Below, piece by piece: positions 8,360 through 41,400 of a stretch of DNA of 64,000 nt. The DNA is from Schmidtea nova. Taxonomy: Eukaryota. The stretch's first letter is position 1, and each line of letters begins with the position of its first letter. Location: the NCBI GenBank assembly GCA_044892505.1, contig CM097882.1:503998001-504062000 (forward strand), in the 5' to 3' direction. The notes beneath the pieces are model-generated. The model was not told the origin of the DNA. It saw nothing but the letters and a program-made list of their open reading frames with translations, and did no database searches. The position numbers and the translations under genes were made by a program.

Positions 8360-9180
8360 ATAAAGAACCCATCGTGACTCACGTGGTGGGTTACTGATAG
8401 AAACTAGGTGTGGTTTTAACCATGGTAACCGCATAACTATAGTGCTATGGTCCCCGCTAAAATGCGCCGTCACTTAGAAACCATACATCTAGAGTTTAAA
8501 CATAAGAAAGCTGATTATTTTATTCATAGGCGTGATGCACTGCCAAATTGTTTCAACTTTCAAAATTAGAAATAAGAAGGCCACTGAAGAAACCAATATT
8601 GTTAGTTATCGTATTTCACTGGCAGGAGAAGTTCATACTATACCTGAGACATCGATCAAGCCCTGTGCATTCGATATAGCTAAATGTATATTCGATTATA
8701 AGTCGTCAAAAGAAATCACTGATATACTGCTATCCAATGACACGGTAGCTTGTCTAATTGAAAATTTAGCAGCTAACGTAAAGTCTCAATTGATATTTCG
8801 ACTGAAAAATTGTAATTTTTCTCAGCAAATTGACGAAAGCACAGATGTAGCTGGACTTGCAATCTTGCTTGTTTTTGTCCGATATCAGCATAAAAATTTG
8901 CTTGAAGATGATCTTCTTTTGTGTGGACCATTGCCAAACAATACAACTGGTGCCGAAATATTTAATATCGTGAAAGATTTTTTAAAGACTAATGGTTTAG
9001 ATTGGAAAAATTGGGTTGATATCTGCACGGATAATGGAAAGGCAATGGTAGGAAAACCGCAGGCGCTGTTGCTCAAATCACGAATTTAGCACCGAAATGA
9101 ACCAATAACCATTACATTCTTCACCGCCAAGAACTTGTAGTAAAAAATTGCATGTCTTTGAAAAATTTCCTTGATGAGTC
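8360..9180 (+). pseudogene. Buster-type hAT transposase fragment
   Basis: QQIDESTDVAGLAILLVFVRY, WVDICTDNGKAMVG and a following CxxH-like region; no TIRs found. Confidence 0.88.
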
Positions 9181-9184
9181 GTGA

Positions 9185-10260
9185 AATTCAATAAAGGTAT
9201 TTTGTTACTTTACGTTGCTTTAACTTTTATATATTATTTTCGGGTAATCCCTCATATTAACTTTTGTTCGTGGGAGAAAAATCATATAAGGAAGCCTCGT
9301 TGGTTGTATACTACGAGGTTGACGGCCTCTCAGTCGCGACTCTTTCGGGGGTCGCGCCGATGCGGCGACTTTCCACTAACTGACGGGAGGGAGAGGATTG
9401 CACATAGAGCATTTTTTCGCTGAGTCCATAATATTTTTTTCAAGGGGCATTATCACGGAACATTTTTATGAATAATAGAAGTAATTTCCATTTTTAAACT
9501 AAGTAGATGTCGGTAATCACATAGTGCCTTTCCATTTAATCACAACGTGTATTTTGCACTAAACATGTAGAACATTTTCATTAACCACCTAGGGTAAGTT
9601 GTACCGTAATTTCAGTATATAACCAAACCGACCCGTTAACATAGCTTAATGAATTGGGATTCGTACTCCTAGACAATAACACAGAGCATTCATGTCATTA
9701 AATATTTGGCCATACAGGGCAGTAATTTTCCATTAAATTTAAGTACATATCACAATTGAGGAAATCGGTCATTCAATCTGTTTAATCATAGGGAGAAATA
9801 GTCTCATCACACAAAATAGTATCTTTCATTTGGGACATACAACCCAGTAGAAAATAATTTACAATCCATGGCGAACTTTAAAAATTCATTTATGATGATA
9901 ATTCGACTTGTCCGTATAACACGGATAGACCAATAATCCCGATTTATCCATAGTGCAGTCATAGCATTTTTTACTCCATGACTAGAATCCGATGAGGGAT
10001 AGCGAATTTACTAAAAACATTCCAAGCGTAATATAATGCGTAACTATAACCAAATTAGGATAATGTAATACTGAAAAATGAACTGGAAGATTTGCATCGA
10101 CGAAGCGAGTAATCCAAATATTTGAATGAAATCAGCCGAACAAAAGACAATGAGAGGACTAAAGTCCAATTTTGCATGAACCGAACCTATTTAAATTGAC
10201 AAGAGTGATATAAACAATCATTTCACCGAATAGTTATGTTTCGCACCATTCCGTAGATAA
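9185..10260 (+). other. 5' part of the unassigned repeat family (unit U0): signature, GC-rich hairpins and linker
   Basis: aataaaggtatt (9190) then ggtaatccctcat (9243-9255), as in the units at 20874/20915 and 24330/24373; shares ctgacggga; hairpins cctcgt/acgagg and cctctc-agtcgc/gcgact-gagagg. Confidence 0.6.
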
Positions 10261-13436: not shown

Positions 13437-14707
13437 ATGAATTTAAATAGAAAGGCACCAGTTATGACCAGCCGTTTTCTAAAATCGCTTCGATAGGAAA
13501 ATTTAGAAGTTAAGAGCGTCCTCACCAGACAAACCCGAAAAGTCAATGACTTGCGCAAGACGTGGTTCGCACCGCAGAAAATGAAGAAATATCTCCAAGA
13601 AATCGAGCGACTCCAGCGAGCTCTCGAGGAACAAGTATCATCATAATACTTATATTAATATTATAATTTTAATAACTAATCACTCTCAATCAACGTCCAG
13701 GGAAATGTAACCCTAGTAATTGGAAGTGTTCTGGATAATATTTGAAATGAGAATAATATCGCCGACGAAATTTCAGATGCGTTAACTGTGCCAATATGTT
13801 TAAAGGAAATATTAGGATTAGGATCTAATAATTTCCACCAAATTTAGCAATTTCAATAAAAAACAGTATGATAGAAAATCTAGATTACAAAAATAATCAA
13901 TAATAATTACGTTTTTAGTTTAGATATTTCAATTTTAATATTAATTTATATTAGTGGTTCTCAAAGTGTAAGTCATGTACCAACTTAAGATGGGTCACCG
14001 AAAATTTTAATATTTAGTTGTTCGTATTATATGCATATCAATTTAATTTTAATTAATTCGTCGTAATACAAAAGCAAATGTCGAGGATTTTATTTGCAAA
14101 AATATAAAACAAGCTCATTCATCTCATGCATCATCTTAATTATGCTTAAATATATGCTTTTAATAAATATATAAATTCAATTTTTTACTTTTTTCCGAGT
14201 ATTTTTACAGGTGGGTCACGAAACTTTACGGTTTTAATAGTGGGTCTCGACTGGTAAACGTTTGGGAACCACTGATTTATATTTTTCAAGATATTTGTTA
14301 CATTTATTTTTAATATCAATTAACAAAAATTATAAATATTTACTATTTATTTTAAACCACTTCATTTATATGTTAACACGGATTTAAAGTGTTAACAACA
14401 AAAAACTAATTCATATAAGCTTACTTTTACTTAACCTTAATATCACAATTTTTTTAAAATGTCGTTTTTATTTAAGTTTTATAAAAGAGAAAATTAAACG
14501 GATAATTCAGTTAATTGTGGATATTTCATTGATTTAGTAAAAGGGAAATGCATTTAGAACTGATATTTGTTGAAGGATGAAAATAAAGAAACCACGGAAA
14601 CCTGTCCAAAAACTCGAAAACCCTCAATCCGAAAAAACTGCGCAGGCGCCCGCTGCCGCAGGCAACGCCGTGCGTTTGCCCAAAAGTTGAGATTACAAAC
14701 AAACTAA
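13437..14707 (+). pseudogene. Degenerate homolog of orphan ORF-B (unit U3), in two pieces
   Basis: 13437-13646: SLR*ENLEVKSVLTRQTRKVNDLRKTWFAPQKMKKYLQEIERLQRALEEQ, colinear with ORF-B; 14564-14707: ...RCRRQRRAFAQKL, matching RRRERRAYAERI. Confidence 0.75.
13952..14274. mobile_element. hAT MITE (323 bp)
   Basis: TIRs tagtggttctcaaa / tttgggaaccactg; perfect TSD atttatat (13944-13951, 14275-14282). Confidence 0.92.
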
Positions 14708-17700: not shown

Positions 17701-18724
17701 TTGGTCAACAAACACTATAAAAAGACAGTGCCGAAAATTCGTGTTAAATATAAAATAAATTGATAGTCTAAAAAAGAAATGAAGATAAAGGAAATTGATA
17801 AAAAGATAAAAATATAAATGAAAATTTTAAAAAAATATTAGTTTTGTTTCTGCATTAATAGTTTTAAAATGATAGCTGAAACTTAGTGGATGTTAAATGT
17901 TACCAAATAAAAATATGCAATTCACTGGAGTCTTTGCTGCTAAAATTGACGGATAAGAGGAAATAATGAAAATTAAATATCATAATTCTATTGGAATTTT
18001 TAAAGTTCAAATACATCGGTATCTGAAAGAGACCAGTGTAAGAGACCAATAGAAGACTGATACTGAAAAATTACTACATCGATACAAGATTTTTCATAGT
18101 AAAATGTATAAATAAAATATTTTATTTTATTTTATAGTGACATTTAATAATACATTTTTAACTTTAAAAAAATATTTTAAAAATCAATAGTAATAAATAT
18201 ACTTTTTATATAATGGAATTTTTTAATTATTCTTCATTCTAATTGAAAACACTACTCAAGGTTACAACGAACACATAAAGTAGTACCACAAGCAAAATGT
18301 TATCATTTCTACATGTATCATCAGACATTTGAGTATTTTCAACATGTATTATTTTCCCGTTCATTTGAGTATCATTCATTGAAAATTATTGATTTCTCAT
18401 TTATTACCCATAGTTCGATTCGATGATAAATGCCCACAGACAGTATTGCACACATGATTAATGCCCACACAGAATAATGCTCACAAGGAAAAATGCCCAC
18501 ATAGATAAATGCCCACACGAAATTAAATATTATTAATCATTTAAATTTATTTTAGTCTTAATACAAAATTTATTTAAATACATATTATTACATTATTTAA
18601 ATTTATAAACCTTGTGTGTAAATTAAATATTATTAATCATTTAAATTTATAAACTTTAGATGTAAAAAAAATAGTACTACAAATATAAATTTTAAGTTTA
18701 TTGCAAATTAGCCAACTTTCGCAA

Positions 18725-19990
18725 CTATAGAATCTTATCTTCCATTGCACTATATTGTTGCACAATAGTGGATACCGAATCAGCTAATTTTTGGTACTTC
18801 CTATTTTTAATTTCAGGACGACCCGTTTCTGAATTGGCTAGTGTTAATCTCTGACAAGCTATATCTCGATGCAATCCATCAAGTAAAAACCATATGCTGG
18901 GATGACTGCAGTGAAATAAAGAATTCAAAGCATTATGAATTCCCTCACAGCAATTCGTTGTTTTCGGTGATTTCTCCAAAGCTGAATCATAATGATTCCA
19001 CAATCCAATGGAGAACAATGGATTTCTACCAGCTGCACCCTCAATATATGTGCCAAAAAAATGTCAGTATTTCACTATAAGCCTCTTCTTCTGGATACGT
19101 TGCTGCAAGCTGATTAAATACTGATCTAACATCAGATACTGACACAAATGACAATGCTGCTAATGATTTCAGCTTTAATTTTATATCCAGGTTGTTTTCG
19201 AATGTAGTTTTAAGACCAACAGAACTATTTTTCTTATTATACTCTGGGCCAAATGGAAATAACAGCCTTTTATGACAGTTTGTGGAAATGCGATTCTGGC
19301 TGCATTCATCGCTGCTTTCTCAAAATCTACCAATATCTTTTCAGGTGCCAAATTTGGTAGCAAGTTCTTTAATATTTCAAACATTTTTTTGTATGTATCT
19401 CCGTTTTTTTTTAACAGAAAATAAATACAAGGTGGATAAGAGTTACCAACCTGAGCATGCCAAGTATACAGTTGATAAAACATGCTTGGAACTTTATCAA
19501 AAGTTCCATCTCCGAATATTGTATCCTTATTTAATTCTCTTAAGAGATAAATATCACCTAAAACAAGAATTCTGTCTGGATCACTTGCACCTGAATCATG
19601 AAGGACTAGCAAGGTTTATTTATCCGGAATTTCAAAATTTGAATCTTTAGGTACTGGTAAATGTCCATCTCTTCTAAAATTCAGAAGATTCCTAGAAATT
19701 GAAGTTTTCTTCGGCATATACGATAGTGCTTCACTGCTTACTTCTAATAAAATACTCCCCATTACATTTCTAGGAGTAGCACCAATTGATGTCATCGCAT
19801 CCTGCATTTTTTTCTTTGCTATATTACATTCAATTTTTTGTGGGCAGGATTCATGGCAATGTTTTGTTGGCTGTTTTACAATATTGCCATCTTTAGTTTT
19901 TATTATGGAATAACATTTTGTAATTCGATATTGCCTGCATCTCCAAGTCAATACTTCATTTGTTGTACGGAAATATATATATACTCAAAC
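18725..19990 (-). pseudogene. MULE transposase, disrupted
   Basis: WRCRQYRITKC...KHCH; IFGDGTFDKVP; LVDFEKAAMNA; GCYFHLAQS; KTTNCCEGIHNALN. Confidence 0.93.
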
Positions 19991-20713
19991 CCAGAGTAAA
20001 TTAAAACTCGATTGCCTTTATGTGTACTAGAATATTCCATTCTCAGGCCTATTAAAATATTTTAAAAAATATCGTTAGAAAATTATGGTATCAAAAGTAT
20101 TAACAAAAGAGAATTTAAATAAACCTTATAATTTAAACATACCTTATAATTTTTTTTTATATTCACAAATTTTCAATTTATGTATTAATATCACTTTTAT
20201 AATTTTAAATATTACTACGAAATTATAAATTTAAATATTACTACGAAATTTAAACGTATGTATATTAAAACCACTTGTAAGTACGATATTCACTTTTGAA
20301 ATGAATTATACTCAAGCAAATTTTTTTACATAAAGTGATGTTGGGCCAAGCAAATCTGAAATGAACTAAAAAATAAAATTAAAGAAATACAAACAAATAA
20401 CAAGAAATAATCAAACAAATAACCAAATTGTCGGCATTTTGACAAGCGCACAACAAAGCCTGAGAAGGTTAACAATAGATTAAATAAAATGTTGACAACA
20501 AAAACTTACGCATGCGGAACGATGGAAACAATAGAAAAAACTAGCTACTCAAAATTGACAACGAGTAGGCGGATCAACCAGCACAAATCTACAAAATAAA
20601 ACAAATTAATAAAATAAAGTCACGGTTGATTAAACAGAAAACTCACAGCATTAAGAAGTACCGACAAACGTTAAAAAATGAAATACACACAAGGTCTGCT
20701 TGCACACTGAATT

Positions 20714-20767
20714 CTGATTGGCTGGACGGCAACACCTTTTGGTATATAAGCAGCAGTAAAAATCAGT
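20714..20767 (+). promoter_or_regulatory. Pol II-type core promoter of U1 (reverse CCAAT, TATA, Inr)
   Basis: ctgattggctg 20714, tatataag 20743, tcagt 20763; same order and similar spacing in U2. Confidence 0.65.
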
Positions 20768-21600
20768 AGTCATGTCATTTTTTTACCGAGAGTAAATTTC
20801 TCACTGAGAGTCATTTTCTGTCTAACCGAATAACGATTGTTAGCGAAACACTGTAAACCGAACAGTTTGAGGAAATAAAAAGTACGTTGATTTAGAATTT
20901 TTCATTATTTTAAACCCTCATGATCAAAATCTATAAGGTTTGTCCCGAAGATCATTTGATCTGACGGGATTCTCGGCCTGTCAGCACAACACATTCTCAT
21001 GTGAGGGCTGATGCGGCGAGAGAAAGACGAGCGACTAAACATGGGGAAGGGTGCACATAGATGTCGGAAGTCACGGTAAAAATTAGAGGTTATGGGAATA
21101 TGTTCAGAGGCAGCAAATATCCATCAGCTCACCCGCAATTAACACTACCCCGAACTACATAGATAGGGTTATATAGTAAAGGGTTATGCAACCCGAGAAT
21201 CGCTAAATACCCACTGAGATCAGTCGTACATCCTACAAATAGCCCGATAAGAATTTATGAATCAGTGTTAGGTGAATCTAATCTGTGACCATAGATAACA
21301 AGTATAAATCAAGCAACACAGCACACTGAAGTGACACAGGTTCGTCTAAAAGCATCGATTGAAACATAGCGTAGTAAAGTGTAGATCGACATACCACTCT
21401 CATTAAAATAATAACTGATCACAGTTTAACCAGTTAAACAAATTAACGGAAAAAATTTTTGTCATTGACAGCCACACTTTCTGAGTAAGGTTCAATTTAT
21501 TTCCGAATGCCTGATTGTATGATGAATGCGTAAGTGAGGATTACTGAGGATTGAATGAAAATTGTCAGTGTTAAATTATATATAGCTTGATTTGCAGCTC

Positions 21601-22053
21601 ATGCCGAAAAGAACACCGATAACGTACCATTGCCAGCCGATCGCAAGCAACATCCTGAAAGCCATCACGAGGGATGATATTCCAACCAGGATCTATAACA
21701 GGGCTGAGAGGCATATGCGGGCTTGGAGGCGCCGACATGTACATATGAGAGCGTCCGCAGGAGAAACTCTATATCAATATCGAATCCGATGGGAAGGTGA
21801 CCCTTGCTGGCCGGAGACGCAAGAACATCATACCAAAACTTCGTCGAGGTGGTTTGTCCAGTTCGAGGACAACCACAATGTCCGATGGATTCTAACATTC
21901 ACTCCAATTCCGATCTGCATCTTTCAACGGCTTGGCTATACCTTTCTCAGTCCTCCAAGATGCATCAAAACAGGAGAAGCGCGACCCTACATCAACTCTC
22001 CAGGACATCGCGACCTACAGCAAGACACCTGGGATCAAAACACAACCTTGTGA
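21601..22053 (+). CDS. Orphan ORF-A (150 aa), unknown function
   Basis: MPKRT...AERHMRAWRRRHV...RIRWEGDPCWP...RWFVQFED...PPRCIKTGEARPYINSPG; same motifs in the disrupted U2 copy; acceptor tttgcag 3 nt upstream of the ATG. Confidence 0.7.
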   Translation: MPKRTPITYHCQPIASNILKAITRDDIPTRIYNRAERHMRAWRRRHVHMRASAGETLYQYRIRWEGDPCWPETQEHHTKTSSRWFVQFEDNHNVRWILTFTPIPICIFQRLGYTFLSPPRCIKTGEARPYINSPGHRDLQQDTWDQNTTL

Positions 22054-22384
22054 GAAGTCTTCGTATACCAGGATGAATTATGCTGGATTCCTTGTCCAGA
22101 TTTCTATCACCCGGACGGAACCGGCAAAGAAAACCGAATCTGCGAGCAAGATTGGATCTAAATGGACAAATCGAATGAATTTTTATGAGAAAGAAATATA
22201 TTAATGAACTCTTGTATTTTTGTTGCGGAATGCATGAAAGTTGACAAACTATGGTTGATGTATGATGAATAGTATGTGCACTTCTGAAGGGCAAGGGTGA
22301 GGAGTGAGAGTCCAGAATGAATCCGTTGCGCTGATTTCCCTGAACTTTAAAGTGAACCCAAATTTTACTCACTCCCTTTTGTAG

Positions 22385-22932
22385 ATGGATACAACTACTA
22401 ACCCAAACGATGAGATACGTTCGTTGCGACAACGTATCAGGGCAGTGGAAAGCCTCGTGAAACGGAAGGAGAACGAGATTAACGAACTACGTACGACCTG
22501 GTTCAGCCCGGAACGGGTCAAGGACATTCAGAAAAGTCGATACCGGGTGGAACGGGCTCTAGAGGATCAGACCCGGAAGTTGCAGCCACCAGGCTGGAAC
22601 TCAATAACTATTTGAGAGTTTCCACGAAGGAGTTCGTGACCCAACAACTGAGACCGTTGATCCGGCTGAGTACTTGCAGTCGTTGGATTGAATCAGCTGG
22701 TGTGTCGAATGGGACACAAACGGATGCGGGTATCGACAACACACAAGAACCACCAAGACCATTTCCCCAAGCCGAGGGCTCAAAACGTACTAAAAGAAGG
22801 AACCGCCTAGCGCTAAGAGGCGTCGAGAACGATGGGCGTATGCGGAGAGAATCTGGATCGAAGTGGATCTCCTGAGCGGTCTAACAGAAAAGCAGCTGCT
22901 GGCCGTCATCAACCCTACTGTGTTATTGAAGT
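22385..22932 (+). pseudogene. Orphan ORF-B of U1, two frameshifts
   Basis: Pieces MDTTTN...TTWFSPERVK...ERALEDQ / LELNNYL...EGSKRTKRRNRL / KRRRERWAYAERIWIEVDLLSG align to the intact U2 ORF-B. Confidence 0.85.
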
Positions 22933-24170
22933 GAAATAAATGTATTGTAATTAAATTGTATTGTTATGAATGCATGTGGAACGATTGATAATGTAAATAA
23001 AAAAATGACTGAGCATATCCAATTCATTTAAAAGCTAACGGACACGAGGAATATAAATCAACCCTAGACGTAATGTAGTTGAATGGATGTGCGGTAACCG
23101 GAATAAAACCACGCAAACCTTCTATCGGTAGTGGTGGACCCGTGAATAAGTAAAGGAATAGTAGCCGCAAGGTTGCTCACCTGCCTTACCATTTCAAAAC
23201 GTTGATACAGTTCCAACATGATGAGTAGTTAGGGATACATCATGGGTATCAGCGGGGGAAAGCGTTTATGTTGGCGAGGTTACCCTAACCAATAAAATCA
23301 AGTATCACCTCTGTTTTAAAATCTAACCAACAAACCAGCAGTGAAATCTCGGTACCTAAATTGGGTTTCCTTAAAAAAAAAGGATTGAGTAGAAATAATG
23401 AATTAAAAATTTTATTTAAGGAATAAAACAATTTTTTTTATCTGTAATTTTTAAAATATGAAATTCGATTTTTAATTTTCTTAATATAAATAACCGATTC
23501 CGGCAAAACTTTTATCACTAATATAAAAATATAAAAAGCTTCGTGGGCATTTATCTATGTGGGTATTTTTCCTTGTGGGCATTATTCTGTGTGGGCATTA
23601 ATCATGTGTGCAATACTGTCTGTGGGCAATTTTCGTGTGGGCATTTTTCGTGTGGGCAACATTGTTAATTTTATTAATTGATTCTATATTGATATTTTAC
23701 CTTTAATTTTGTCAATAGTTTGCAGATTGTTCTTGCGAATGTATATGACCGTATAAGAGAATATCTATTACCTAGCTCAGTTATCAATAAAATCTATTCC
23801 AAAACAAATGGGTTACGTGTATATAGGTACGATGAATGTAAGTGCGGATAAATAACCAAAAAATAGAATAAGAAAGAGATAGAGATACTTGTATAAAAAT
23901 GAGTATACTCGTCACCGGTAAACATGTTTAATCATGAATAGACGAGCATAATTCTCTCCTGTTAACAATGTGTTAATGAATAAATACACACCCAAGCAAG
24001 ACACAAACTGACAACGAGTAGGCGGACAACGAGCGGAACATGATAGCTAAAAAATAAAAATCGAATAAAATAAAATTAACGGTTGAGTAAACATAAAACT
24101 CACCGGATTAGACAAGTAAAGATAAACATTAAAAATGAAATGCTCACAATACTCGCACACATACTAAATT

Positions 24171-24224
24171 CTGATTGGCTGGCCGTCAACAGAAATAAGT
24201 ATAAATACGGCAGCCAAATTCAGT
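24171..24224 (+). promoter_or_regulatory. Core promoter of U2 (reverse CCAAT, TATA, Inr)
   Basis: ctgattggctg 24171, tataaata 24200, tcagt 24220. Confidence 0.65.
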
Positions 24225-25291
24225 CAAATGATGTCATTTTTACCACTAAAAATCAATTTTACCGAGCGGTAATTCTTACCTGTGAAGTGAATTACTATCA
24301 GAAAACCTTTGTACAAGAGAATCGATTGGAATAAAAGGTATTCTATGATTTTATTTTGTGTTTATTTTTAAACCCTCATGATATCTAAAATCCATAAGGC
24401 ATCCCGAAGGTCAGGCGATCTGACGGGATTTTGTGCCTATCAGCGCAACACATTTTCATGTGAGGGCTGATGAGGCGAGTGGATAAGTTTAGTAAATTTG
24501 GGAAGGCTGCACGTAGACATCGAATTTGAATAACCACGTAGAGGGATATGCCCAAGTACCACTGCATGACAATGTTGGAGAAGGCACATGGATAGTGCGA
24601 TATGATAACACCATCGAGAGTGTATTGAAAAAAAAATCTGAATCGATGATAACATGGATTGAGAAAATGATAAAGAGAAGTAGGTAACAGACATCACATG
24701 TTAAACCTAATCATGATAAAGGGCACCCACGAGACGAGGCCATAGGACATATAACAAACGTTAACAATAAATGAGATCGTATGAGGCGCCCCGTAAAAGG
24801 TTTAATTGCACAAGTTGAAGTAAGCGTCATCCCTTAATCATCATTGAGGAGAGTAACGATAAAGCACAAGGGTAACCGACACTTCAATGATAATCGACAT
24901 GCCAATTTAAATGATATGAGTAGCTGTGCTATGATTGATTGTTGAAATATATGACTGATCAATGAAATGACATGCCTGGATGCATGATATGAAAGACTGT
25001 TGTAGGCCAGTCTATAATAGACCAGACTAGCGTAGGCCGAATGGTGAAGGTAAACGATCATTTAAAAATGAATTAAATGTTGAACTAATCAGTTAAACCA
25101 TCATTTATGTTGTCGGACGAAAATAAAATCATTAAACAAGCAAAGGTAAGCAAAAATTTTAATTGATGGTGAAATTGGAAAAACATGCTTGAGTCTGTAA
25201 TGGTGGGAATGATGACGATATATCGTGATTGAATGAAATGAAGGCAGCTGCTCAAGTATAATGTATGAATTTAATGAATTTCTCGCAGAAA

Positions 25292-25712
25292 ATGCCAACG
25301 AGGACCATTCACGTTTAGCAATGTAAATTCATGAAAACGATCGCAACGGGATCGAATGCAATTCCAGAAAAAATCAAAGCCACAGCCGAGCGTCATATGC
25401 GGGCGTGGAGACGAAGTCATGTAGACCCCACATCGAGATCAATGGCATTCCCATACCGCTTCCGGATCAGATGAGACGGTGATCTAGCTTGGCCGATATC
25501 ATGCACGGATAAAGCCTCAAAACCCACCAAGATGGTTTATTCAATTCGAGGATGACAAGGGAATCCCCAGATGCCTACTAACGCATGGGGTGCATCTTAT
25601 TGGAGCCTCCTAGGTGTATACGCACAGGAAAGCTGCGGCCGTACACTAATTCGCCTGGAAACAGAAAAATAGTAAATAAATGTATAGTTGATTTCATGAG
25701 TTCGGAATGTTG
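25292..25712 (+). pseudogene. Orphan ORF-A of U2, with stops and frameshifts
   Basis: MPTRT...TAERHMRAWRRSHV...FRIR*DGDLAWP...RWFIQFEDDKGIP...PPRCIRTGKLRPYTNSPG; acceptor ctcgcag 3 nt upstream of the ATG. Confidence 0.8.
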
Positions 25713-25864
25713 AGGCATGAGTGTGGTTTGAATTAAATGATTGGGAGACAAATGAAATGAAATGGGAGTGGGTAAATCTAAATAGGATACCCGAAATGGT
25801 GCGGTAACGGATGATTAGCTTAAATTGATGAGATATGATTAACTAATCGACTCTATAATTCTAG

Positions 25865-26398
25865 ATGGACACAACGACAAACGACATAAATTCGAATGAG
25901 ACTCGGTTATTACGCAAGCGCATAAGAGTGCTAGAAAGTCATTTAACACGGCAGGAATCTGAATTGAGTCAGCTAAAAACGACCTGGTTCCACCCCGAGC
26001 GGGTCAAAGAGATCCAACAGCATAGATACCGGGCGGAGAGAGCGTTGGAGGATCAAGCCCGTGAAACTGCCGCGGTCAAATTGGAGCTCAATAATTACCT
26101 GCCAGCATCCACGAAAGATTTCATCGAACAACAACTAAAACCGTTAATCAGCACCAGTACATTCAACCGTTGGGCAGAGTCGATCAATGTATCCAGTGGA
26201 ACCCAAACGGAAACAAGCCTCACCCCTATATTAGAAAGCTCAAAGGAGATTTCCAAGCCGGAAGGATCGATGCGTACGAAGCGAAGGAATCGCTTAGGCA
26301 CAAAGAGACGTCGCGAGAGGAGGGCCTACGCCGAACGAATAGGAATCGAGGTGGATTTCTTAAGCGGGCAAAAAAAAGCAATTGTTAGAGGTCATTAA
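25865..26398 (+). CDS. Orphan ORF-B (177 aa): N-terminal coiled coil, TWFxP motif, Arg-rich C-terminus
   Basis: Uninterrupted ORF with two homologs in the window; ATG directly follows an AG acceptor (ttctag|ATG; U1 ccctttt gtag|ATG). Confidence 0.8.
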   Translation: MDTTTNDINSNETRLLRKRIRVLESHLTRQESELSQLKTTWFHPERVKEIQQHRYRAERALEDQARETAAVKLELNNYLPASTKDFIEQQLKPLISTSTFNRWAESINVSSGTQTETSLTPILESSKEISKPEGSMRTKRRNRLGTKRRRERRAYAERIGIEVDFLSGQKKAIVRGH

Positions 26399-27908
26399 CA
26401 CGGATGTTAATAGGGACACATCATGGGTAACAGCGGGGGAAGCGTGTTTATGTTGGTGAGATTAGCCTGAAAATTAACATCAAATAAAATCTCAGTTAAA
26501 AATCATACCAACAAACCAGCAATTGGACTAAAATCAAAATTCAAAAATTAACACAATAACCATAGATATATAATATTTAAAACAAATCACAGAGAGCCTC
26601 TTTCTATACTTTTACGTTGTGTTCATTACAAACAACAATCTAATGATAACAAACTCGAGTTGCTCACTTCTGAGATAGAAAATGTAAATGTTATTAACAA
26701 TAAAGATGTCTGGAAAGTGGTTTTGGCTCGGATCAAAAATACCAACTTATACCAACATTAGACAACTAATCAACTTGTAGTAAATGACTGGAGCTTTTAA
26801 ATACACTATTTCACATTTATAAATTATACCTACTACATGGTTACACAATATACACATGTAAGTAGTTCAATAAAACTATTTAATTGATCATTATCGGTAA
26901 TCCAAGAAAGTTTTCCATATTACCATTTCCACTTGCATAAGCTATTTCAATTTTTAAAACTCGCGGTAATATATAATATTGTAAAAGCTTTATTATTAAA
27001 AGTTGTATAGGAAATATTTTTATTTCAAATCATTATGTACAATTGAAACCGATTTAAATTATTTGACTTTAATATCCAATTACGAAATAGTAACCGGTGA
27101 CATGAGATAGTTTCTACCTAAGACTAACAGTAATAAAAATACTACATCGAAATGTTGCTATAGTGATTTAATACTTATCAAAATAATAGTGTCTAAATAT
27201 TATCTAATAACGTAAATTAAAATGTGTTTTTATAAATTACTTCAAATATATTTAGTTGTGGCTGTTGTTTTAAAAATCCAGAAAAAGGAAGTTTTAGTAT
27301 AAAAAATATTCGGATCGGGCCCGACGCCACGAGGGGCATTTGGAAGGAATGCCCCCCCCCAATCGAGATGTCTTAAAAAAATTTAGGTGCCTTTTTTTCT
27401 ACTACGATGGCAAACACTGCTGTTTGCAATAAATTTTCTGTTTTCTAAATAAAGTGTGCATTGATTGCTCACACATCTCAGGCTACAGCATTGACCACTC
27501 ACCGCACCTATTGTAATACAACCTTTCTTATTTATGCATGTACTCTCATAACACTATAGCCCTTCTCATACACGCGCAGACTTATAATGTCACTTTGAAA
27601 ACAATCAGCGATCGACTTATGTATTGTCTATGCAAGTGTCTACCGTTTTACTACAGTGTGACAGCTGGCATTCATTGTAAAGCATTATGATCTATAAGAG
27701 TAAGTGTTGCAACTTTGTATATTATAAAAAGTTAACGTGTTGCTTTGGATAAATCAGATGTCAAAGCAACAAAAACATTGCTGGATTAGTGTTCTTGTTC
27801 TGTTCGTGTTGGGAGCACGCCTTCAGTTGCTTCTCCTGGTCTAACTTCTCATGCTCAAGCAGATCAAGCATGCCAACAGGGTGATATTGCAAATATGTGA
27901 GCTTTATC

Positions 27909-32011: not shown

Positions 32012-33768
32012 CAATTATATATATTATATTAAGTTACAAAATTTAAATGCGAACAAAAAGGAAAAATCGCAAATTTAAGAAAACTAATATGATTCGATTT
32101 TCCAAACAACTTTATAAATCAAAGAATTACATTATCAGTTTATAAAAGCAAATCAAACAAAAAGGTACTATTACTATATTCGAAACACAAATTTTTAAAA
32201 TTATAAAGTAATACTAAACGGGTCCTTAAGACAATCAAAGTTTACAATAAGACAAAATTTATAATGAATTTGATTAATGAAAAAGTTATATATTTAATCA
32301 AAATAAAAATTGGAAAAATCCAATGTCGAAAATTCGTGTTTCAATGAAATAATTTTGATATATTCTCTTAAAAAATGAAAATACCTTAAATTTAAGTGGA
32401 AAAGATCAAATATAACCTAAGTTAAAAATGTTTATGTTAAATAAAATAATTATTATTAATAATTTTAATTTTAATCACATGGTGATTGTGTATATGAAAT
32501 GGTTTAAAAAATTGTTTTCATTATCTTATAAAGACGAATGAATGTACAAGTTAATGATTTTCTACTAAGCACAAAAAGAATGATTTAAAATATTGATTGA
32601 AACAGGAGTAATCATTAAGCAATAAATATATCATTGTGTAATTTAGGTTATATTCAAGTTTGGCAACTATATGCCATGAGGGGCTCAATTTTCAATTAAT
32701 TAAGATATTTTACGTTAAGAATATTTAAAAAATTAATTAATTTTTAATTGGGAGGGGGCTGAAAGCTAGTAGTACCAATTTTGGTTTCGTTTAAATTTGT
32801 ATGGATATATTTTAATTTCTAACTATTTTGAATCATAATTTAAAAATTATGTTTTATAAAAAAAACTATTGATTTCAAGACAACTTGTGTACATTATTGT
32901 ACAAAACCAATGACATTAGTTAATGATAAAACAAATTTATAGATATTAGTGTCGCTGCTAGCCGAATAATAAACGCTGAATGAAGCGTCAAAAAGATTTG
33001 GCAGCTTTTAAACGTACAAGAAAACTGTTTGAAAAGATCCTATTCTTAATTTATGTTTTGTCATTTTAATCTCCAGTGAGTGTTGTGGCAAAAAATTAAA
33101 AATCACCCTTAAACAGTAATTCAAGGTGATGTTTATAAATAATTAATTAAAAATCCAGCCCCTTTGCTATAAGTATAATATAATTAAAACTAAATGATAT
33201 TTAGTTATTTATCGGGTAAAATTACCATTGAAATTAGAATAACTATGAAATACAATAAAAAACACTTAGTATATGGTTAGCATATTTAAATGTGTCCATT
33301 TTACATAATTCGTTACTCAAATTTCTAACAAAAAATCAGAATATTAAAAATTTAATTATGATTCATTAAATAACATATAAAACAAGAATAAGCAAATTTA
33401 CTTTATTATTTTTAAGCCAAACTATATCAATATTTACGACATTTTTCATTAATATAAACATATCTTTTAGAAAATGAATATTTCTGTATTGCATTTAAAC
33501 ATTTCTGACATTTCAATTGAAATTTAGATTTAATGTATAAAAATTTTGTATAATTATCCAGTGTCCTGTAAATATTTTTTAAAATAATTGAATTTCAATA
33601 ATAAATAAAAATTTAAATTCATTTTTAACCTCATAAAATTTCAATTGGCCTCATTTATTAATAGATTTGAAAAAAAACTGAAATCTCCAATTGTTTCTAA
33701 TAGTTACTATGACATTTAAATGTGCTTAATTACCAATGGTTGTAAAATGAAATTAATTAAATAGGCCT

Positions 33769-36700
33769 AGTTAAATCAAACTCGGTTTTAAAAGACTGAA
33801 CTTCCTTCATAGATTTATTTCAATTAAAATTTTATAAAAAGTGCCAAAATACTCAATTAATAAAACACCAGTTAATTTAAATATCCAACTCTCCACTTCT
33901 TAAGAACTTTTCCACTTCTTCAGCCACTCGATTCTTCTTTCTTTCGTTCCTTCTTGCAAATGTAGTTGGACTTGATGAGGTGATAGAAATCTGATGATTT
34001 TATATTTGGCCATCGTACTGCATACCATCCTTGTGCCTGTTCTGCGATTCTTTGCGTACGAGTACCTCCTCCCCTACCTCAAAAACACGAGTTCCTCTCT
34101 TTGTCTTATCCATAGCTCTCATAGTGTCTGCGGCTTTACTCGAGTTATATCTTGCGTCTTCTATCCATTCGCTTCTTGATATCTCTGCTTGTTTCAGGTT
34201 TGAATGTAGGTTAACACTCCGTCCATAAATTATCTCAAATGGTGATAAGCCTGTAGCACTCTGTCGACTGCTATTTATACTGAACTCTATTCTAGGTAGA
34301 AGTTCATGCCAGTTTCTCTCTTCACACCCACCTGCCAATGTCACTGTAATAAGATCTCTTACTGTTCGTATGGCTCGTTCGGCTAATCCATTTGATTGGT
34401 GCTGGTAAGGTGAGCTGAATTCCTGTCTGATTCCAAGTTTCTGTAGTCTCTGTCTTAGAAAATTCCCTTCGAAATTGCGTCCTCTATCTGTTAAAATGCT
34501 CTTTGGTTTTCCGAATCGATAGATCCAACTGTTAAGTATAGTTTTGAAAATTGTCCCTTCGTCTTGCTTCGTGATTGCGGTCAAAGATATCAATTTACTA
34601 AACCGGTCCACAATTACTAACATATATTTTTTAATGGTGTTTTTTTCCATGTAGGCCACATCTATTACAATCTGTTCTAGGAATTCAGAATTACATCTAG
34701 GGATAAATATTTCCTTGGTTCTTGTCTGATCGATCTTTCTCTTAGAACAGATATCGCAACATTGTAAACAGAGCTGAATTGTTTCTTGCATCTTCGGCCA
34801 GTAAAAAATCTTTTCCTTATAATGGAATAATTTCTTAACTCCAATATGACATAATCCTTCATGTAGAGTTGTTGTTAATAAGCCTGCAAAGGTTTCTGGA
34901 ACTAACATTAAAATATTTTCGTTCTTTTCGACTGTTATTAATCCTCCATCAATTCTTGTATTTTTTACGTTAAATGGGAAACAATTCTTTTTGTCCCATG
35001 CGCATCCATTTTCTAATATCTCTCGTAACTCTCGAAACCTAATGTCCTTCTGCTGTTGCTCCAATACTTTTTCCATAGCTTCTGTTCTTTGAATAGTATA
35101 TATATATCGGATTTTTGACTTTCCTTCCTTGGCATCTTCATGTCGTGTTTGACACTGGGAACAAATCATACTTTTTAATCTTGATAGCCCATCTGCATTC
35201 GAATGTTCTTCACCTTTCCGATATTTTAGCTCAAAATCATATTCAGACAAGTTTGCTAACCATGTTTGAAACTGCGGACTGATTGTTGTTTTTGTAGTGT
35301 TCATGAAAATCAATGCCTTTGTGGTCATTGCGAATTATGAATTTTTTTCCGTAAAGATATTCTCTAAAAAGTATGACATACTCATGTACAGCGAGCAGTT
35401 CTTTCCTGGCTACACAGTAACCCTTTTCATGTTATATCATATGTTTCGAACCATAGGCTATAACAGATTCTTCTCCATCTTCTTTAATTTTGCGCAAAAC
35501 TGCACCAATAGCTCCAAAGCTAGCGTCTATGTCTAAGATAAATGTCCTATCTTCTCTTGGATAATCAAGAATAGGTGCCTCGCACAAACGTTCCTTCAGT
35601 GTTTGGAAACTCTCATTGCATTCTTTAGTCTAAATTATATCTTTATCGCATCCAGATGTTGCGGCATATAGTGATTCTGCGATTCTGGCATAGTCTTTAA
35701 TGAATCTTCTATAGTAGTTCGTTAATCCGAGAAACGATCTTAATTGCTTTGGACATTTTGGTATTTCTGCTTTCTCGATTTCTTCAACTTTCTTTCTGTT
35801 TGCCTGGATACCCTTCCCATTAACTGTGTGCCCAAGGAAACACAATTCTGTTTTATTGAATTCGCTTTTTTCCGGATTTATCTTTAGTCCAGCCATTTGA
35901 ATTCTTCTAAATATTTGCCCTTGTAGCTCATCGTGGTCTTATTGACTTTTCCCATAAATCAAAATATAATCTAGATAAACAACTACTCCTTTGAATAGCA
36001 TTTCTTCTAGTACTTTGTGCATCGGTCTTTGGAATGTCGCAGGTGCTGTTACTAAGCCAAAAGGTAGTCTATTAAAGTTAAATTGTCCTTCTCTTGTACT
36101 GAATGCAGTCATTTCTTGAATTTATGGGGCCAACTATACTTGATAGTACGCCTGGCATTAATCAATTGATGAAAATATTTTTGCATTCGAGAGACAGTTT
36201 AGTAAGAATTTGGTATTAGACATCGGAAATGATTCCTCTTCTGTTATGAAATTCAATTCACGATAGTCTCCGCCCATCCTGATGGACCCATCTTTCTTCC
36301 CTATTATCACTCTTGCATCATCGAATAACATTTGCTTTCATTAACGCTTTTATCAATTCTTCAATATTTTTCTCCATTTGCATTGATTGACGTTGAGGAT
36401 GTTGCAATATTGGTCCTCCTGTTATCCGCATCTCATGTCGAACTAAATTTGTAATTCCCAAATCAAATTTCGACGCCATAAAGATTCCGCCATATTTCCT
36501 GATCATTCCTTCAATGTCTTTATTATTCTCACTTGCCATCGCCATCAGTGCTTTATTTATTCTTTCTTCATCAGTGTAGATTTTGCTTATGTATGAGGTT
36601 TCTATATTATTAATCTTCACTAACTTAACTCCAAACTCTTTCATTGTATCAATACCCCCTATGAATTCGGGCTTGATCTCTTTTACAACCACTACTTTGA

Positions 36701-38375
36701 TAATTTTGGTCTTCTGATTCCATGTGGCCGATATATTCATATATTCCATTGCTTCTTCACCTCCAGTTGAAAATACGCCGCATAATAATATAGTACTACG
36801 TCGAAGGTCTGTTTGCCTATACTCTCCCACAAAATCTTGCTCATGACTGTTACTGACGCTCCAGAGTCTCATAACATATCTACGACTGTATTATTTAGCA
36901 TTATTTTACTCCGACTTCTTCCATCCTTCGTCTGATACATCTCTTCTTCTGGCTTATCTCTTCTTCGTTCATTTCTGCTTTCACAATTTAATGTCTTGAC
37001 TCCACCGACGAAATGAAATTCACGGAGTCGCTGACGTTTTTCCGTCTTCTATCAATGTAGTATATTTCTCAGGAACATTATAACTATCTTCCGTATCGTT
37101 GTAGCCATTTTGAAATCCTGGCTGTTTTCGGTGTAATCTCGTTTTTTCAGATTTGAAATCTTCTTCTTTTATGCACGGTATTCTTTGATATCGGCGGGGA
37201 ACCTCTTTTTGTAAAGAAAAACAATCTTGGAACCCGTGACCCTCCTTACCACATATCAGACATTTATTTACCAGTGGACACTCATATCCTCTGTGTCCTC
37301 TTTCGCCACAGCAAAAACAGTCACCTACTGTTAATTTTGGAGCCGGTGATTGTGGAAGTCCTCTGCTTTCGTTATAGAGCCTTCTTGCTATATTCTTCAT
37401 GGAAATTGTTGACAATTTCCTTTCTGAGCCATCGTGGATTCTCACGTTTCGCAAAAATTTTTCTCTTGGGAATTGTTCTCGCCGACCGCGGTTATTTTCT
37501 TCGTATTGTATTGATTCGCGTATATGATGTTCGTCTCTTCTTGGTCTGTATTGACTAAATGGCTCTTCTAATAGTCTTCTTTGTGATGGCGTGAGTCTGA
37601 AATCTTGAGTATTCTTTTGTATTCTCATCTGACCTCCCTCAATCACGCTAGCATATCTTTTACCAATTGCTTTAATAAATTCAGCTTTATTGCTTCCATT
37701 TTGTTACTTTCAGAAATCTTCGCCAATGATCTCGTTTCTTCAATTTTTGTTTCTGGTTTCGTCAATAATATCTCCCTCAGTCTCGCATCGCATTCTTTAT
37801 TTGCGATGAGATCTTGAACAATATCTTCTTCTGATCGTTCTGAATTTAGAACTTCAGCCAAAGGTTTCCTTAATCGTATCTCGAAAGCTGCAAAAAACTC
37901 ATCATCTTCCAGTTCCAGAACTGATTTTGTCAGTTATTGATTTTGTAATTGTGAACGTATTTAAGAACCCCGTTTTGGATTTCACATCTGTTGTTTCTGT
38001 TTCTCTGACGTTTCCCCACAATGTCTTAGCGTTTGCCACTAATAACACATCGAAGGTGCTTGTCAATCGCTGTCCATTTGTCAACAGCCATTCTTCTATG
38101 TCCTTAATCAATTCTTCTGCTTCTTTTGATTTTCGTCCATCATATCGTCTAATATTCAGTCTGAGCATATCTTGGCATGATTTTGGTAGGCATTTCATTA
38201 AAGTCTTTGTTGATTTTGAAACTGCATTGACATTCTGATTTTCTGCGTGGTTGCTAGTTAAATCAAACTCGGTTTTAAAAGACTTCAATTCTGTCATAAA
38301 TTTATTTAATAAAAATTTTATAAAAAGTGTCAAATAATCAATTATTTAAACACAAATTAATTTAAATATCCAACT
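33769..38375 (-). mobile_element. Gypsy/Ty3 LTR retrotransposon 1, degenerate
   Basis: About 120-bp direct repeats 33769-33890 and 38256-38375 (AGT...ACT ends); gag with two CCHC knuckles; protease DSGAS; RT; RNase H; integrase HxxxCH...CxxC, IDVAY, IVDRFSK, TDRGRNF, NGLAER; no TSD seen. Confidence 0.93.
34000..35328 (-). CDS. Open RNase H C-terminus + integrase segment of Gypsy 1
   Basis: 442-aa open frame with zinc-binding and DDE motifs. Confidence 0.9.
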   Translation of the reverse strand: MTTKALIFMNTTKTTISPQFQTWLANLSEYDFELKYRKGEEHSNADGLSRLKSMICSQCQTRHEDAKEGKSKIRYIYTIQRTEAMEKVLEQQQKDIRFRELREILENGCAWDKKNCFPFNVKNTRIDGGLITVEKNENILMLVPETFAGLLTTTLHEGLCHIGVKKLFHYKEKIFYWPKMQETIQLCLQCCDICSKRKIDQTRTKEIFIPRCNSEFLEQIVIDVAYMEKNTIKKYMLVIVDRFSKLISLTAITKQDEGTIFKTILNSWIYRFGKPKSILTDRGRNFEGNFLRQRLQKLGIRQEFSSPYQHQSNGLAERAIRTVRDLITVTLAGGCEERNWHELLPRIEFSINSSRQSATGLSPFEIIYGRSVNLHSNLKQAEISRSEWIEDARYNSSKAADTMRAMDKTKRGTRVFEVGEEVLVRKESQNRHKDGMQYDGQI

Positions 38376-38432
38376 ATTACTATATGTCAATTTGTTATAC
38401 ACTAAAAAGGGTCCACGAATATTTTAACCCAT

Positions 38433-41400
38433 AGTTATGTCTCCTTCTAAATTCATTAAAAATTCAAACAGCAAGATTAATTATTTATTTAAAAACACAC
38501 CTTTCTTTATATTATTAAAACAATCAACAATTTATATAACTTCCCCTATCTTTAAGGATCTGCCCATCTCTTCAGCCATTCGATATGTCGAAGTTACTTT
38601 GAATCTCCATCGATCAGCTCCACTTGATGTTTTGACAAAAATCTTGATATTACGAACGGCCCGTCGTACTGAAGGCCATCTTTGTCCCGATTTTGTGGTT
38701 CTTTCCGAACCAATACTTTCTCTCCTACCTGAAAAATTCTATGCGTCCTTCTATCCATGTCTGTTTCTTTCATTTGTTTTGCTGCCATTTCGCTGTTTGC
38801 TAGAACCTGCTTTCGTGGTTCGGTTGCGTTCAAATTTGTCTGTGGTAGCATTGAATGTAGATTAATTTTCCTCCAGAAAACAATTTCGAATGGTGGAAAT
38901 CCTGTTGTACTCTGTGTTGTCACATTCTATACGTGGGAGTAAATCTTCCCAATTTCTCTCTCCTAATCCACTGAATATAGAAGTTGTTAATAGGCCTCTG
39001 ACTTTTCGTATAGTTCTTTGAATCAGCCCATTCGATTGGTGTTGGTATGGTGAGCTCAGGTGTTGTTAGATGCCTAACTTTCCTAGATGTTTTTTCACGA
39101 ATATGCTGTCAAAATTCTTACCTTTGCATGATAAAAGACTTCGTGGTTTACCAAATCTATTTATCCACCTCTCTAATATAGCTTTGAACAACAATTTCTC
39201 ATCTTGTCTTTTATTGCAGTTAGACTAACAATCTTGCTAAAACGGTCAATAATAACTAATAAATATCTGTAATTTCCTTAAGGTTTCATGTGGGCTATAT
39301 CTACAGCCAATTGTTCTAAGAAATCTGAACTCATTATCGGTATCAGTCGTTTCTTTGTTTTCTCTTGTACTATATTCCGTTTACAACATATTTCACATCA
39401 TCTTAAACAGCTTTGAATTGTTCCTTGCATATTCGGCCAAAAAAATAAATCACTCATGTAACTTGTTAATTTCTTCATTCCAATATGACACATTTCTGTG
39501 TGGATGTTTTTGACTAATGTATTAGTGTAGTCTAATGGTACTAATATGACATCCTTTCCGTCTTTCTCAAGCAGTAAATATCCGTTTTCGAATTATGTGT
39601 TCTTCAGCAAATTAAAAGGGAATTTCTTCTTGTTCAGAGTTCTTCCATTCTCTTTTCCCAGTAATACCCTTGACATGTGTATGAAATCTACGTCATCCTC
39701 TTGTTTGTTTTAAAGTCTTGTCATTGATTCAGTCTTCTGTAAGATACTAATATATCTCACTCTGGTTTTTTCCTCTTTCGCGTCTTCATGTTGTGCCTGG
39801 CATTGAGCACATAACATTCCCTTGATCCTTGAGATACCGTCTGCATTCCCATGTTCTTCTCCTTTCCTATATTGCAAGTTGAAGTCATATCCGGAAAGGT
39901 CGGCTAGCCATGTCTGAAACTGTGGGCTTATTGCATTCTTGGTGTATCTCATGAAGACTAGTGCTTTGTAATCTGTTCGCACTACAAAAGCCTTTCTATA
40001 TAGATATTGTTTAAAACAGTGATGTCCAACCGAAGTTAGTTACTGGGCCAAAACAAATAATAAAAATATACTGTGGGCCGCATATATTTATTTATTATAA
40101 AACATTACAAAATACATTATTTTTTACGTATACTTTACTTAATGTAAAACTTGTTTTTCAATTTTTTCAGTTAATTTTTTTTGTCCACATGTATTTTCGA
40201 CGCTACACACCGTAATTGGTTTTTTAAATTTTCATCAGTTAATCTATTACGACTTTTACATTTAACAATCTTTAGTTTTGAAAAGAAAGATTCGCAAAGA
40301 TAGGTGGTTCCCATTGCAGTTGTAACGCTTATTGCTCGCTTTCTTAGGTTAGGAAATTTTCTATTACAGACATATTTTTTAAAAAACTGAACTTTATCAT
40401 TTGCTTCAAACATATATTTCAATTCAGTAGATGCTTGGAGATCTATTAACTCCATCTGCAAATTTGTTGGAGCTGTTTCTACAACAACGTCAAATGGACA
40501 TAAGAAGATATTAAATATATTTTCATAATTCTTCAAATATGAAAATCTCTCCTGAAATTCTCGTAGTAAATTAGTAATTTCTTGCGCATATTTAGAAAAC
40601 TTTTTATTGTCACTATTAAATTTATGTAATAATGGAAAGTGGACTGAATTTTTTTATATTAATTGACCTTCATAAAGTTTGAGTTTTGTTATGAATGTTT
40701 TTATATTTTGATAACAGTCTGTTATTAATTTATTTTCACCTTGAAGGTTCTTATTAAGTTCGTTTTATTTCATAATTATATCTGTAAGGAAACACAAATC
40801 CAAAAGCCACTGTTCATCGTATAATTCAGCAACATTCTGGTCATTTTCATTCATAAAAATTCCAATTTCTTCCCATAAGTTCCAAAATCTGTCTAAGCAT
40901 TTACCACAACTTAACCATCGAATTTTCGCATAAAAAAGCAAGTCACTGTACTCAGATTCCAGTTCTTGAAGATAATCTTGGAACTGACGATGTTTCAAGG
41001 AATTATTCTTTATTGTGTTAATTGTTTTAATAACGACTGACATCACATGGTTCATATCAAATACTTGTGCACATAAATTTTCAAGATGTAAAAAACAGTG
41101 ACAAATAAAAATCTCCGAAGATTTTTAACTTTTTCCCATGATATCTCTATGATCAAGAACTAATTTAATGGCTCTAGTATTTTTACCGATCATTGAGGCT
41201 TCACCATCTGTGGTGATCCCAATTAGGTTTTCTAAGCTCAGACCATGATCAAGTGTGTATTTTACAACAGCTTCCTTTATGTTTTTTCCGGTAGTTGTAT
41301 CTTTCAAACTCATAACATCGAGAAATTCTTCAATAATATTCATTTCACATCCACACCTCGAATAAAAATAGCAAGTTGGGCAGTGTCCTTAATATCTGTA

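Follow-up and report, generated by a model that had tools for sequence, protein, structure and literature searches.

Two decayed solo LTRs in Schmidtea nova from a giant, Burro-like Gypsy element whose LTR carries two selected genes and a leader very probably spliced to either of them

Solo long terminal repeats (LTRs) are usually regarded as non-coding promoter relics. Retroviral genes can overlap an LTR, as do sag of mouse mammary tumor virus and nef of human immunodeficiency virus, both of which are located in U3, before the cap site, and depend on the 5′ LTR for expression, and one non-coding leader can be joined to several acceptors, as in the adenovirus late unit and for orf a and orf b of walleye dermal sarcoma virus. 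Here we describe a stretch of 64,000 nucleotides (nt) from Schmidtea nova (GCA_044892505.1, contig CM097882.1, positions 503,998,001 to 504,062,000, forward strand; the window) with two units, U1 and U2, in which a leader exon precedes two open reading frames (ORFs), ORF-A and ORF-B. Both units, now decayed, are solo LTRs that stem from an env-bearing giant Gypsy retrotransposon; judged by description, this element is Burro-like. Taken as a whole, our results make it very probable that these are remnants of LTRs with two selected genes, whose leader was joined to ORF-A or to ORF-B in spliced RNAs that were then reverse-transcribed. Unlike sag and nef, the two genes follow the cap site, and a solo LTR would thus be a complete unit; since the LTR itself carries them, both genes stay in place each time an element recombines to a solo LTR.

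The closest described relatives are Burro/GYPSM1, planarian giant Gypsy-like elements with a total length of >30 kb and an internal region of up to 25 kb (PMC6431247; this and the other published accounts are cited from excerpts). They share with the element described here many copies, CCHC knuckles, a protease–reverse transcriptase–integrase (PR-RT-IN) order, TRAF/MATH domains, an env-like fusion protein between gag and pol and separate accessory ORFs (PMC6431247). In size our element, at ~29.4 kb with 3.3-kb LTRs, belongs to the same class and is slightly below the >30 kb given for Burro. Burro is further characterized by BCL2-like, ankyrin and BIR motifs and by a single in-frame polyprotein of ~4900 aa. 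The excerpted Burro account covers internal domains and accessory ORFs and mentions no LTR genes, intron or splicing (PMC6431247). Cer1 of C. elegans is likewise a Gypsy element with a tRNA-Pro-type primer-binding site (PBS), and one of its spliced mRNAs encodes a novel protein, CERV, which is required for export of unspliced RNA (PMC10309623). CERV differs in its 517 amino acids (aa), its internal position and its exons common with gag, in an element whose LTR is ~490 bp (PMC10309623), whereas here two genes lie within the LTR. Foamy virus LTRs resemble ours in that each of the two LTRs has the major splice donor and the poly(A) signal side by side, and the signal of the 5′ LTR is suppressed through U1 small nuclear ribonucleoprotein (snRNP) (PMC3694450). 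The foamy virus donor precedes the signal (PMC3694450). In our element the donor comes 1-2 nt after the hexamer, and two genes with signals of their own follow within the LTR. Plant LTR retrotransposons, too, carry conserved additional ORFs, some of them spliced (PMC7264820). Neither Burro-type elements nor Gypsy elements with spliced accessory genes are new as such. Literature searches gave no report of genes or an intron in these LTRs, judged from listings and from excerpts of PMC6431247, PMC8532177, PMC11410931, PMC7264820 and PMC13524379; the original Burro paper, its supplements and Repbase, which could mention the ORFs, lie outside that scope. In the present case the LTR itself appears to be a two-gene unit that is under selection and spliced and whose proteins lack detected relatives, and the genome documents alternative splicing in an env-bearing giant retrotransposon independently of RNA. 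The means by which such elements silence a 5′ poly(A) signal and export their unspliced RNA thereby become open to testing, as does the question whether complex-retrovirus-style regulation originated independently in flatworm Gypsy elements.

The LTR units and their parent element

The features of the window units are as follows.

20339..23340, + strand: U1, complete but decayed solo LTR (TG...CA), from sequence and target-site duplication (TSD)
20339..20776, + strand: U3-like part of U1, CCAAT-type box at 20714 and TATA at 20743, elements conserved in copies
20777..20881, + strand: U1 leader exon, non-coding, ATG-free, initiator (Inr)-like A at 20777, AATAAA at 20874-20879; start placed by TATA and Inr alone
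20882..21597, + strand: predicted U1 intron to ORF-A, GT at 20882, CAG ending at 21597; the matching intron is absent in L140-L143
20908..21020, + strand: conserved structured RNA motif of U1, intronic, multi-stem by prediction
21601..22158, + strand: U1 ORF-A, premature stop inside, homology running to ~22158
22371..22384, + strand: U1 ORF-B acceptor, pyrimidine tract and TAG, rank 1 of 153 AGs
22385..22931, + strand: U1 ORF-B, frameshifted, from family comparison
22935..22940, + strand: poly(A) signal at the U1 ORF-B end, T-rich downstream element
23086..23340, + strand: strongly conserved 3′ block of the U1 LTR, from copy comparison and profile search
23979..26521, + strand: U2, LTR of another subfamily, start approximate, ~160 nt of the 5′ end lost
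24236..24337, + strand: U2 leader exon, CCAAT-type box at 24171, TATA at 24200, Inr-like A at 24236, AATAAA at 24330
24338..25288, + strand: predicted U2 intron to ORF-A, GT at 24338, CAG ending at 25288, structured motif at 24366-24479
25292..25671, + strand: U2 ORF-A remnant with stops, frameshifts and a deletion
25675..25680, + strand: poly(A) signal after U2 ORF-A, hexamer
25865..26398, + strand: U2 ORF-B, 177 aa, TAG/ATG at 25864/25865, C-terminus and poly(A) signal deleted
9178..9409, + strand: U0, remnant of a distant family member with AATAAA/donor and stem motif, profile E 2.2e-9, donor-like site at ~9196
13479..13637, + strand: ORF-B-like remnant, iE 9e-6, possibly part of U0 after later insertions

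The original prediction, made from the sequence of the window, held that a single promoter makes two mRNAs by alternative choice of the 3′ splice site. All of its U1 and U2 coordinates agree with the sequence: the donors follow AATAAA as AA/GTACGT at 20882 and AG/GTATTC at 24338, 105 and 102 nt from the Inr-like A (20777, 24236), the ORF-A start codons lie 3 nt past YGCAG acceptors ending at 21597 and 25288, and those of ORF-B directly follow TAG at 22384 and 25864. The structured motif is within the intron, as had been proposed. Similar donor-like sites had been named in U0 and U4; the first belongs to a family remnant, whereas U4 (60830-60856; site ~60845), a ATTAAAAG/GT look-alike, is not confirmed because no DNA or protein profile of the family matched there. 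U2 also carries deletions of ~190 nt after ORF-A and ~310 nt after ORF-B, and in U1 the donor has A at -1 and the ORF-A acceptor scores poorly. Both units are decayed and probably make both proteins no longer.

Family ends, TSDs, paired LTRs and internal domains identify U1 and U2 as solo LTRs of a Burro-like Gypsy element. Units of the family have sharp common ends when copies are compared; U1 runs from TG at 20339 to CA at 23340 with the 4-bp TSD GTGA on either side, and an exact 4-bp TSD flanks 25 of 32 complete solo-type units. A PBS-like motif shared by two copies beyond the LTR led to the internal region. Both 3.3-kb LTRs were recovered in five of six candidate full-length elements (~29.4 kb), with 99.88-99.94% identity within pairs, agreeing TSDs and PBS-like and polypurine tract-like flanks; the PBS-like motif agrees with the tRNA-Pro type quoted in an excerpt on Cer1 (PMC10309623). 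Pfam matches in open stretches of one decayed copy comprise CCHC knuckles, a viral fusion glycoprotein, PR, RT, IN, RING and TRAF/MATH. Their order is that of Ty3/Gypsy, gag CCHC followed by PR-RT-(RH)-IN, with the RNase H stretch read by eye. The env-like region lies between CCHC and protease (PF24664, E 5e-7 and 2e-19), and the MATH domain is in a separate 470-aa internal ORF (E 2e-26). BCL2- and ankyrin-like internal stretches are impressions by eye, the former without a Pfam match. The genome is AT-rich, 1.25 Gb in size, and holds many family copies: first-look searches gave 2305 and 2845 candidates, 40 of each set being scored, and one donor-plus-stem variant had 266 exact matches against 8 for its reversed control.

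Intron-less copies and selected genes

The most direct evidence on splicing comes from genomic copies without the intron. We searched the genome for LTRs in which the leader end stands at the spliced distance from conserved ORF codons. In the leader-to-ORF-A search, four of six matches are LTRs with intact U3, TATA, Inr and leader fused to the ORF-A exon; the remaining two were dismissed on their first 80 letters. L140 and L141 are the two LTRs of one element, identical over 780 nt and with the TSD CTTT, L142 is an intron-less 3′ LTR and L143 an intron-less solo LTR with the TSD GGAT. Relative to the unspliced L128, L140-L142 lack 856 nt bounded by GT and AG, whereas L143 is exact at the donor. 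In the leader-to-ORF-B search one of eight matches, L144, joins the leader to the ORF-B ATG and lacks the 1709-1782 nt from GT to AG that are present in L068 and L067; the other seven were dismissed on their first 80 letters. Both junctions are therefore present as DNA, in three independent insertions for ORF-A and one for ORF-B; compared with an unspliced relative, three of the four match both predicted sites exactly, and the fourth matches the donor exactly. Support for the alternative joining of one leader to either ORF thus comes from the DNA of intron-less relatives rather than from U1 or U2 RNA. We conclude that the intron-less LTRs are most likely reverse-transcribed spliced RNAs.

Further junction searches added nothing to this set. 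Two narrower ones gave none in three matches, with a gap too narrow for some subfamilies, and none in one match; among 30 matches of another, the two examined whole were unspliced and 28 were judged from 80 letters; and by eye no new junction was seen among the 100 matches listed of 265 in the last. As an observation on the intron-less LTRs themselves, L140 and L142 are mosaics, with leader exons that diverge strongly (62-75%) and U3 91-95% alike. The U3 of L142 matches L112 at 99% as far as roughly the Inr, where it changes over; a U3/R boundary at this point would account for that.

The signals needed for such splicing recur across the family. We surveyed 43 LTR units, with 41 donors scored and L043 judged by eye. 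Because the scores are ad hoc, with no training on introns of the host, and the copies are related to one another rather than independent, we treat the enrichments that follow as descriptive. A GT follows the AATAAA hexamer in 42 of the 43 units (L065 has GC), and in 22 of 41 it scores highest among the 45-73 GTs of the unit; G at -1 and A at +3 are nearly fixed, and later positions vary. The leader is depleted of ATG: dinucleotide shuffles predict 55 for the 3959 nt examined, and 4 are present. The stretch from donor to ORF-A holds 14-36 ATGs in 15 copies, so that unspliced RNA could hardly translate either ORF. Taking the best ATG within a window, the start codon has a good acceptor no more than 8 nt away in 28 of 32 anchored copies for ORF-A and 30 of 38 for ORF-B, compared with 62 of 2470 other ATGs. 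Conservation well above that of controls extends to the promoter, the ATG-free leader, the AATAAA with its donor, the acceptor 0-7 nt upstream of each ATG and the poly(A) signal of each ORF. All five internal accessory ORFs inspected have a YAG 1-7 nt upstream of their ATG (495 of 2470 control ATGs), which suggests that the same donor probably serves the whole element and also feeds these ORFs. An ORF of 152 aa with a RING finger lies ~550 nt past the 5′ LTR in L135:641-1099 and has its own acceptor and AATAAA.

Both LTR ORFs of young copies evolve under purifying selection. Young LTRs carry an intact ORF-A of 200-227 aa and an intact ORF-B of 187-199 aa; between subfamilies the lowest identity is 28% for ORF-A, with core motifs kept, and 48% for ORF-B. 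The median ratio of nonsynonymous to synonymous substitution (dN/dS) is 0.23 for ORF-A (28 pairs, 8 ORFs) and 0.12 for ORF-B (21 pairs, 7 ORFs). No homologues of either protein were found in Pfam or PDB sequences, in a set of 5.8 billion sequences (near lengths only) or in the Atlas (best 0.79), and the single match of ORF-A to representative sequences is a tandem-repeat artefact. The predicted ORF-A model is a small alpha/beta domain (predicted local distance difference test, pLDDT, 67) without a fold match (best Z 3.0), which does not in itself imply a new fold; an early impression of a chromodomain was dropped. The predicted ORF-B model (predicted template modeling score, pTM, 0.28) consists of long helices at 3-91, with coiled-coil character, a disordered linker and a basic helix, and had no fold match in a viral library. 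In 14 of 14 aligned rows ORF-B has a QT-type motif, which presumably resembles dynein light-chain binding motifs, and an Arg/Lys-rich motif; a Leu-rich C-terminus is conserved by eye.

A model of expression and its alternatives

The joining of the leader to either gene in intron-less copies leads us to regard each LTR as likely its own two-gene expression unit, similar to that of a complex retrovirus. We envision a scenario in which transcription would start at the Inr, giving one promoter and one ATG-free leader. The donor would be spliced to acceptor A in an mRNA that ends with the signal after ORF-A, or would skip to acceptor B in an mRNA whose 3′ end is set by the signal located at the ORF-B stop. 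Unspliced RNA, which would retain the intronic structure, would serve as genome. U1 snRNP near the cap would mask the donor-side AATAAA in foamy-virus fashion. More speculatively, ORF-B could export or chaperone intron-containing RNA through the intronic structure, as Rev or CERV do. A Rev-like, CERV-type role fits the anatomy of ORF-B, whose Arg-rich motif and long predicted helices are of the Rev/Rex/CERV kind and whose join to the leader in L144 agrees with a spliced mRNA, but is a tentative assignment that we hold to be somewhat less likely than not; our homology searches, which included no direct comparison with CERV, turned up no similarity to it. A more ambitious proposal, which we hold to be rather doubtful, is a Gypsy provirus with the regulation of a complex retrovirus in its LTR: one donor overlapping a poly(A) signal, seven or more cassette genes, ORF-B as a Rev-like exporter acting on the intronic structure, ORF-A as a second regulator of new fold, and solo LTRs as autonomous units acting in trans on full-length copies.

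The poly(A) signals suggest how the two mRNAs could end. In 27 of 35 copies ORF-A is followed by a hexamer that has a T-rich stretch downstream, and the same holds for ORF-B in 31 of 35, compared with 18 of 325 control windows. Each ORF having its own downstream signal, ORF-A and ORF-B are probably alternative last exons. As a separate observation, TGCATG occurs shortly past the ORF-A signal in 15 of 32 copies and in 15 of 211 intron windows (~22210 and ~22975 in the window); we assume that it resembles an Rbfox site, which could steer exon choice. For the AATAAA beside the donor, the original prediction had offered an LTR-type poly(A) signal as the alternative to splicing; the two options are compatible, and the T-rich downstream element and the R-region-like position suggest that the hexamer is probably both a poly(A) signal and a neighbor of the donor. 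By analogy with foamy virus, we somewhat favor the view that it is the signal of the LTR R region and that U1 snRNP masks it close to the cap. A less probable explanation, which keeps real weight, is that this hexamer is no working poly(A) site, that R spans both ORFs and that genomic RNA ends after ORF-B or later. The hexamer overlaps exonic donor bases and could be retained as splice context, and other conserved hexamers lie at the ORF-B stop and ~195 nt from the LTR end; but a donor needs no AATAAA, and this first hexamer is present in nearly all copies with the T-richest downstream element (T 12-20 of 30).

The 3′ end of the LTR has features of its own. Its last ~200 nt (23086-23340; L117:4848-4971) are far more conserved than the rest and ~tenfold deeper in DNA runs, and the fixed AATAAA ~195 nt before the LTR end has no T-rich downstream stretch. 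The block is possibly a structured integration or packaging element. The 3′ accessory ORFs in L136:2596-5906 are separated by 74-124 nt, and TGTAAA(TA) words, which resemble CFIm or Pumilio sites, recur in these gaps.

For ORF-B and the internal ORFs, the main rival to cis-splicing from the LTR donor is spliced-leader (SL) trans-splicing, which could share the acceptors. Under this view, cis-splicing would join the leader to ORF-A and cleavage would follow downstream of that ORF, whereas ORF-B and the ORFs of the internal region would for the most part receive a host spliced leader in trans, as in an operon that yields both proteins from one transcript. The ORF-A signal lies just ~145-200 nt upstream of the ORF-B start, and the internal 3′ ORFs are spaced by 74-124 nt with a YAG beside the ATG; moreover, SL trans-splicing is reported in planarians, and acceptors of parasitic flatworms are often shared between cis- and trans-splicing, according to the excerpt (PMC12582326). 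However, L144 shows a cis join of leader to ORF-B, acceptors that resolve operons are depleted in cis-splicing (PMC12582326), and cis leader splicing and SL trans-splicing can coexist. We consider this arrangement unlikely. Trans-splicing of a tapeworm densovirus transcript, considered as a precedent, does not appear in the excerpt of PMC6880638 and was not used.

A simpler explanation of the intron-less copies is that they are ordinary recombination deletions, with the ORFs read from unspliced RNA or from internal promoters. Imprecise internal deletions are common in these LTRs (L130, L062, L060, L040, L132), and the AG common to the leader end and the intron end offers microhomology at the join. 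These points weigh against the reading we favor, as do several others: the junction patterns detect exact-type joins only, the ORF-B junction is seen in the single copy L144, the acceptor side of L143 has no exact unspliced relative among the loci compared, L140/L141 is a mosaic of an L112-type leader and an L128-type exon A, and the signal survey has the limits given above. Four sequencing runs are even over unique flank and resemble genomic DNA, with leader junctions in none of 13 listed joints, and are neutral on expression. Of 35 copies, 8 have no signal after ORF-A, among them U1 and three young copies; the match of ORF-B to Pfam REV (E 0.05) is below the cut-off; and the intron-less element with two LTRs and a TSD was able to integrate although it lacks the motif, so the structure was not indispensable in cis in that round. 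Chance deletion is possible, but would require repeated exact use of both predicted splice sites, as found in three of four independent insertions with the fourth exact at the donor, and the 14-36 upstream ATGs make scanning of unspliced RNA implausible. We judge recombination deletion very improbable, on an analysis that included no search for internal promoters, and retain the spliced-RNA origin.

The intronic motif itself is ~110 nt long, begins ~30 nt inside the intron and contains several predicted stems, with compensatory change at 2 of 20 predicted pairs. That this short, strongly conserved structure with its CTGATG word is a self-cleaving ribozyme (hammerhead- or HDV-like) of a retrozyme- or Penelope-type element is the least probable reading and was rejected, because there is no Rfam match up to E 1, the conserved hammerhead catalytic core is missing (CTGATGA occurs in 1 of 37 copies plus U2) and the unit is the LTR of a coding Gypsy element.

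Neighboring elements and other family copies

Among other copies of the family, a same-strand pair at C1:473.09-473.11 Mb was considered as a full-length element and ruled out as a segmental duplication of a solo unit within the LTR of another Gypsy element. Close inverted pairs of family LTRs are frequent (L036, L044, L049, L063; G000:C1:18.09 and 18.11 Mb), and gene sets resembling those of Polintons, with ATPase-, integrase- and capsid-like frames by eye, lie near or inside the copies L073-L075 and L092-L095.

Within the window, U1 is nested in a MULE-like element (18425-23634) with inverted arms at 18425-18535 and 23524-23634 and a transposase remnant on the minus strand near 19181-19483. 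Positions 1-2274 contain Penelope-like RT and GIY-YIG-like frames, identified by eye, and a perfect inverted duplication of 427 nt. Decayed gag-pol remnants of another Gypsy family, ~65% like a young element elsewhere, occupy 33767-44778 on the minus strand, and an uninterrupted ORF of 586 aa at 56672-58432 is piggyBac transposase-like by eye.

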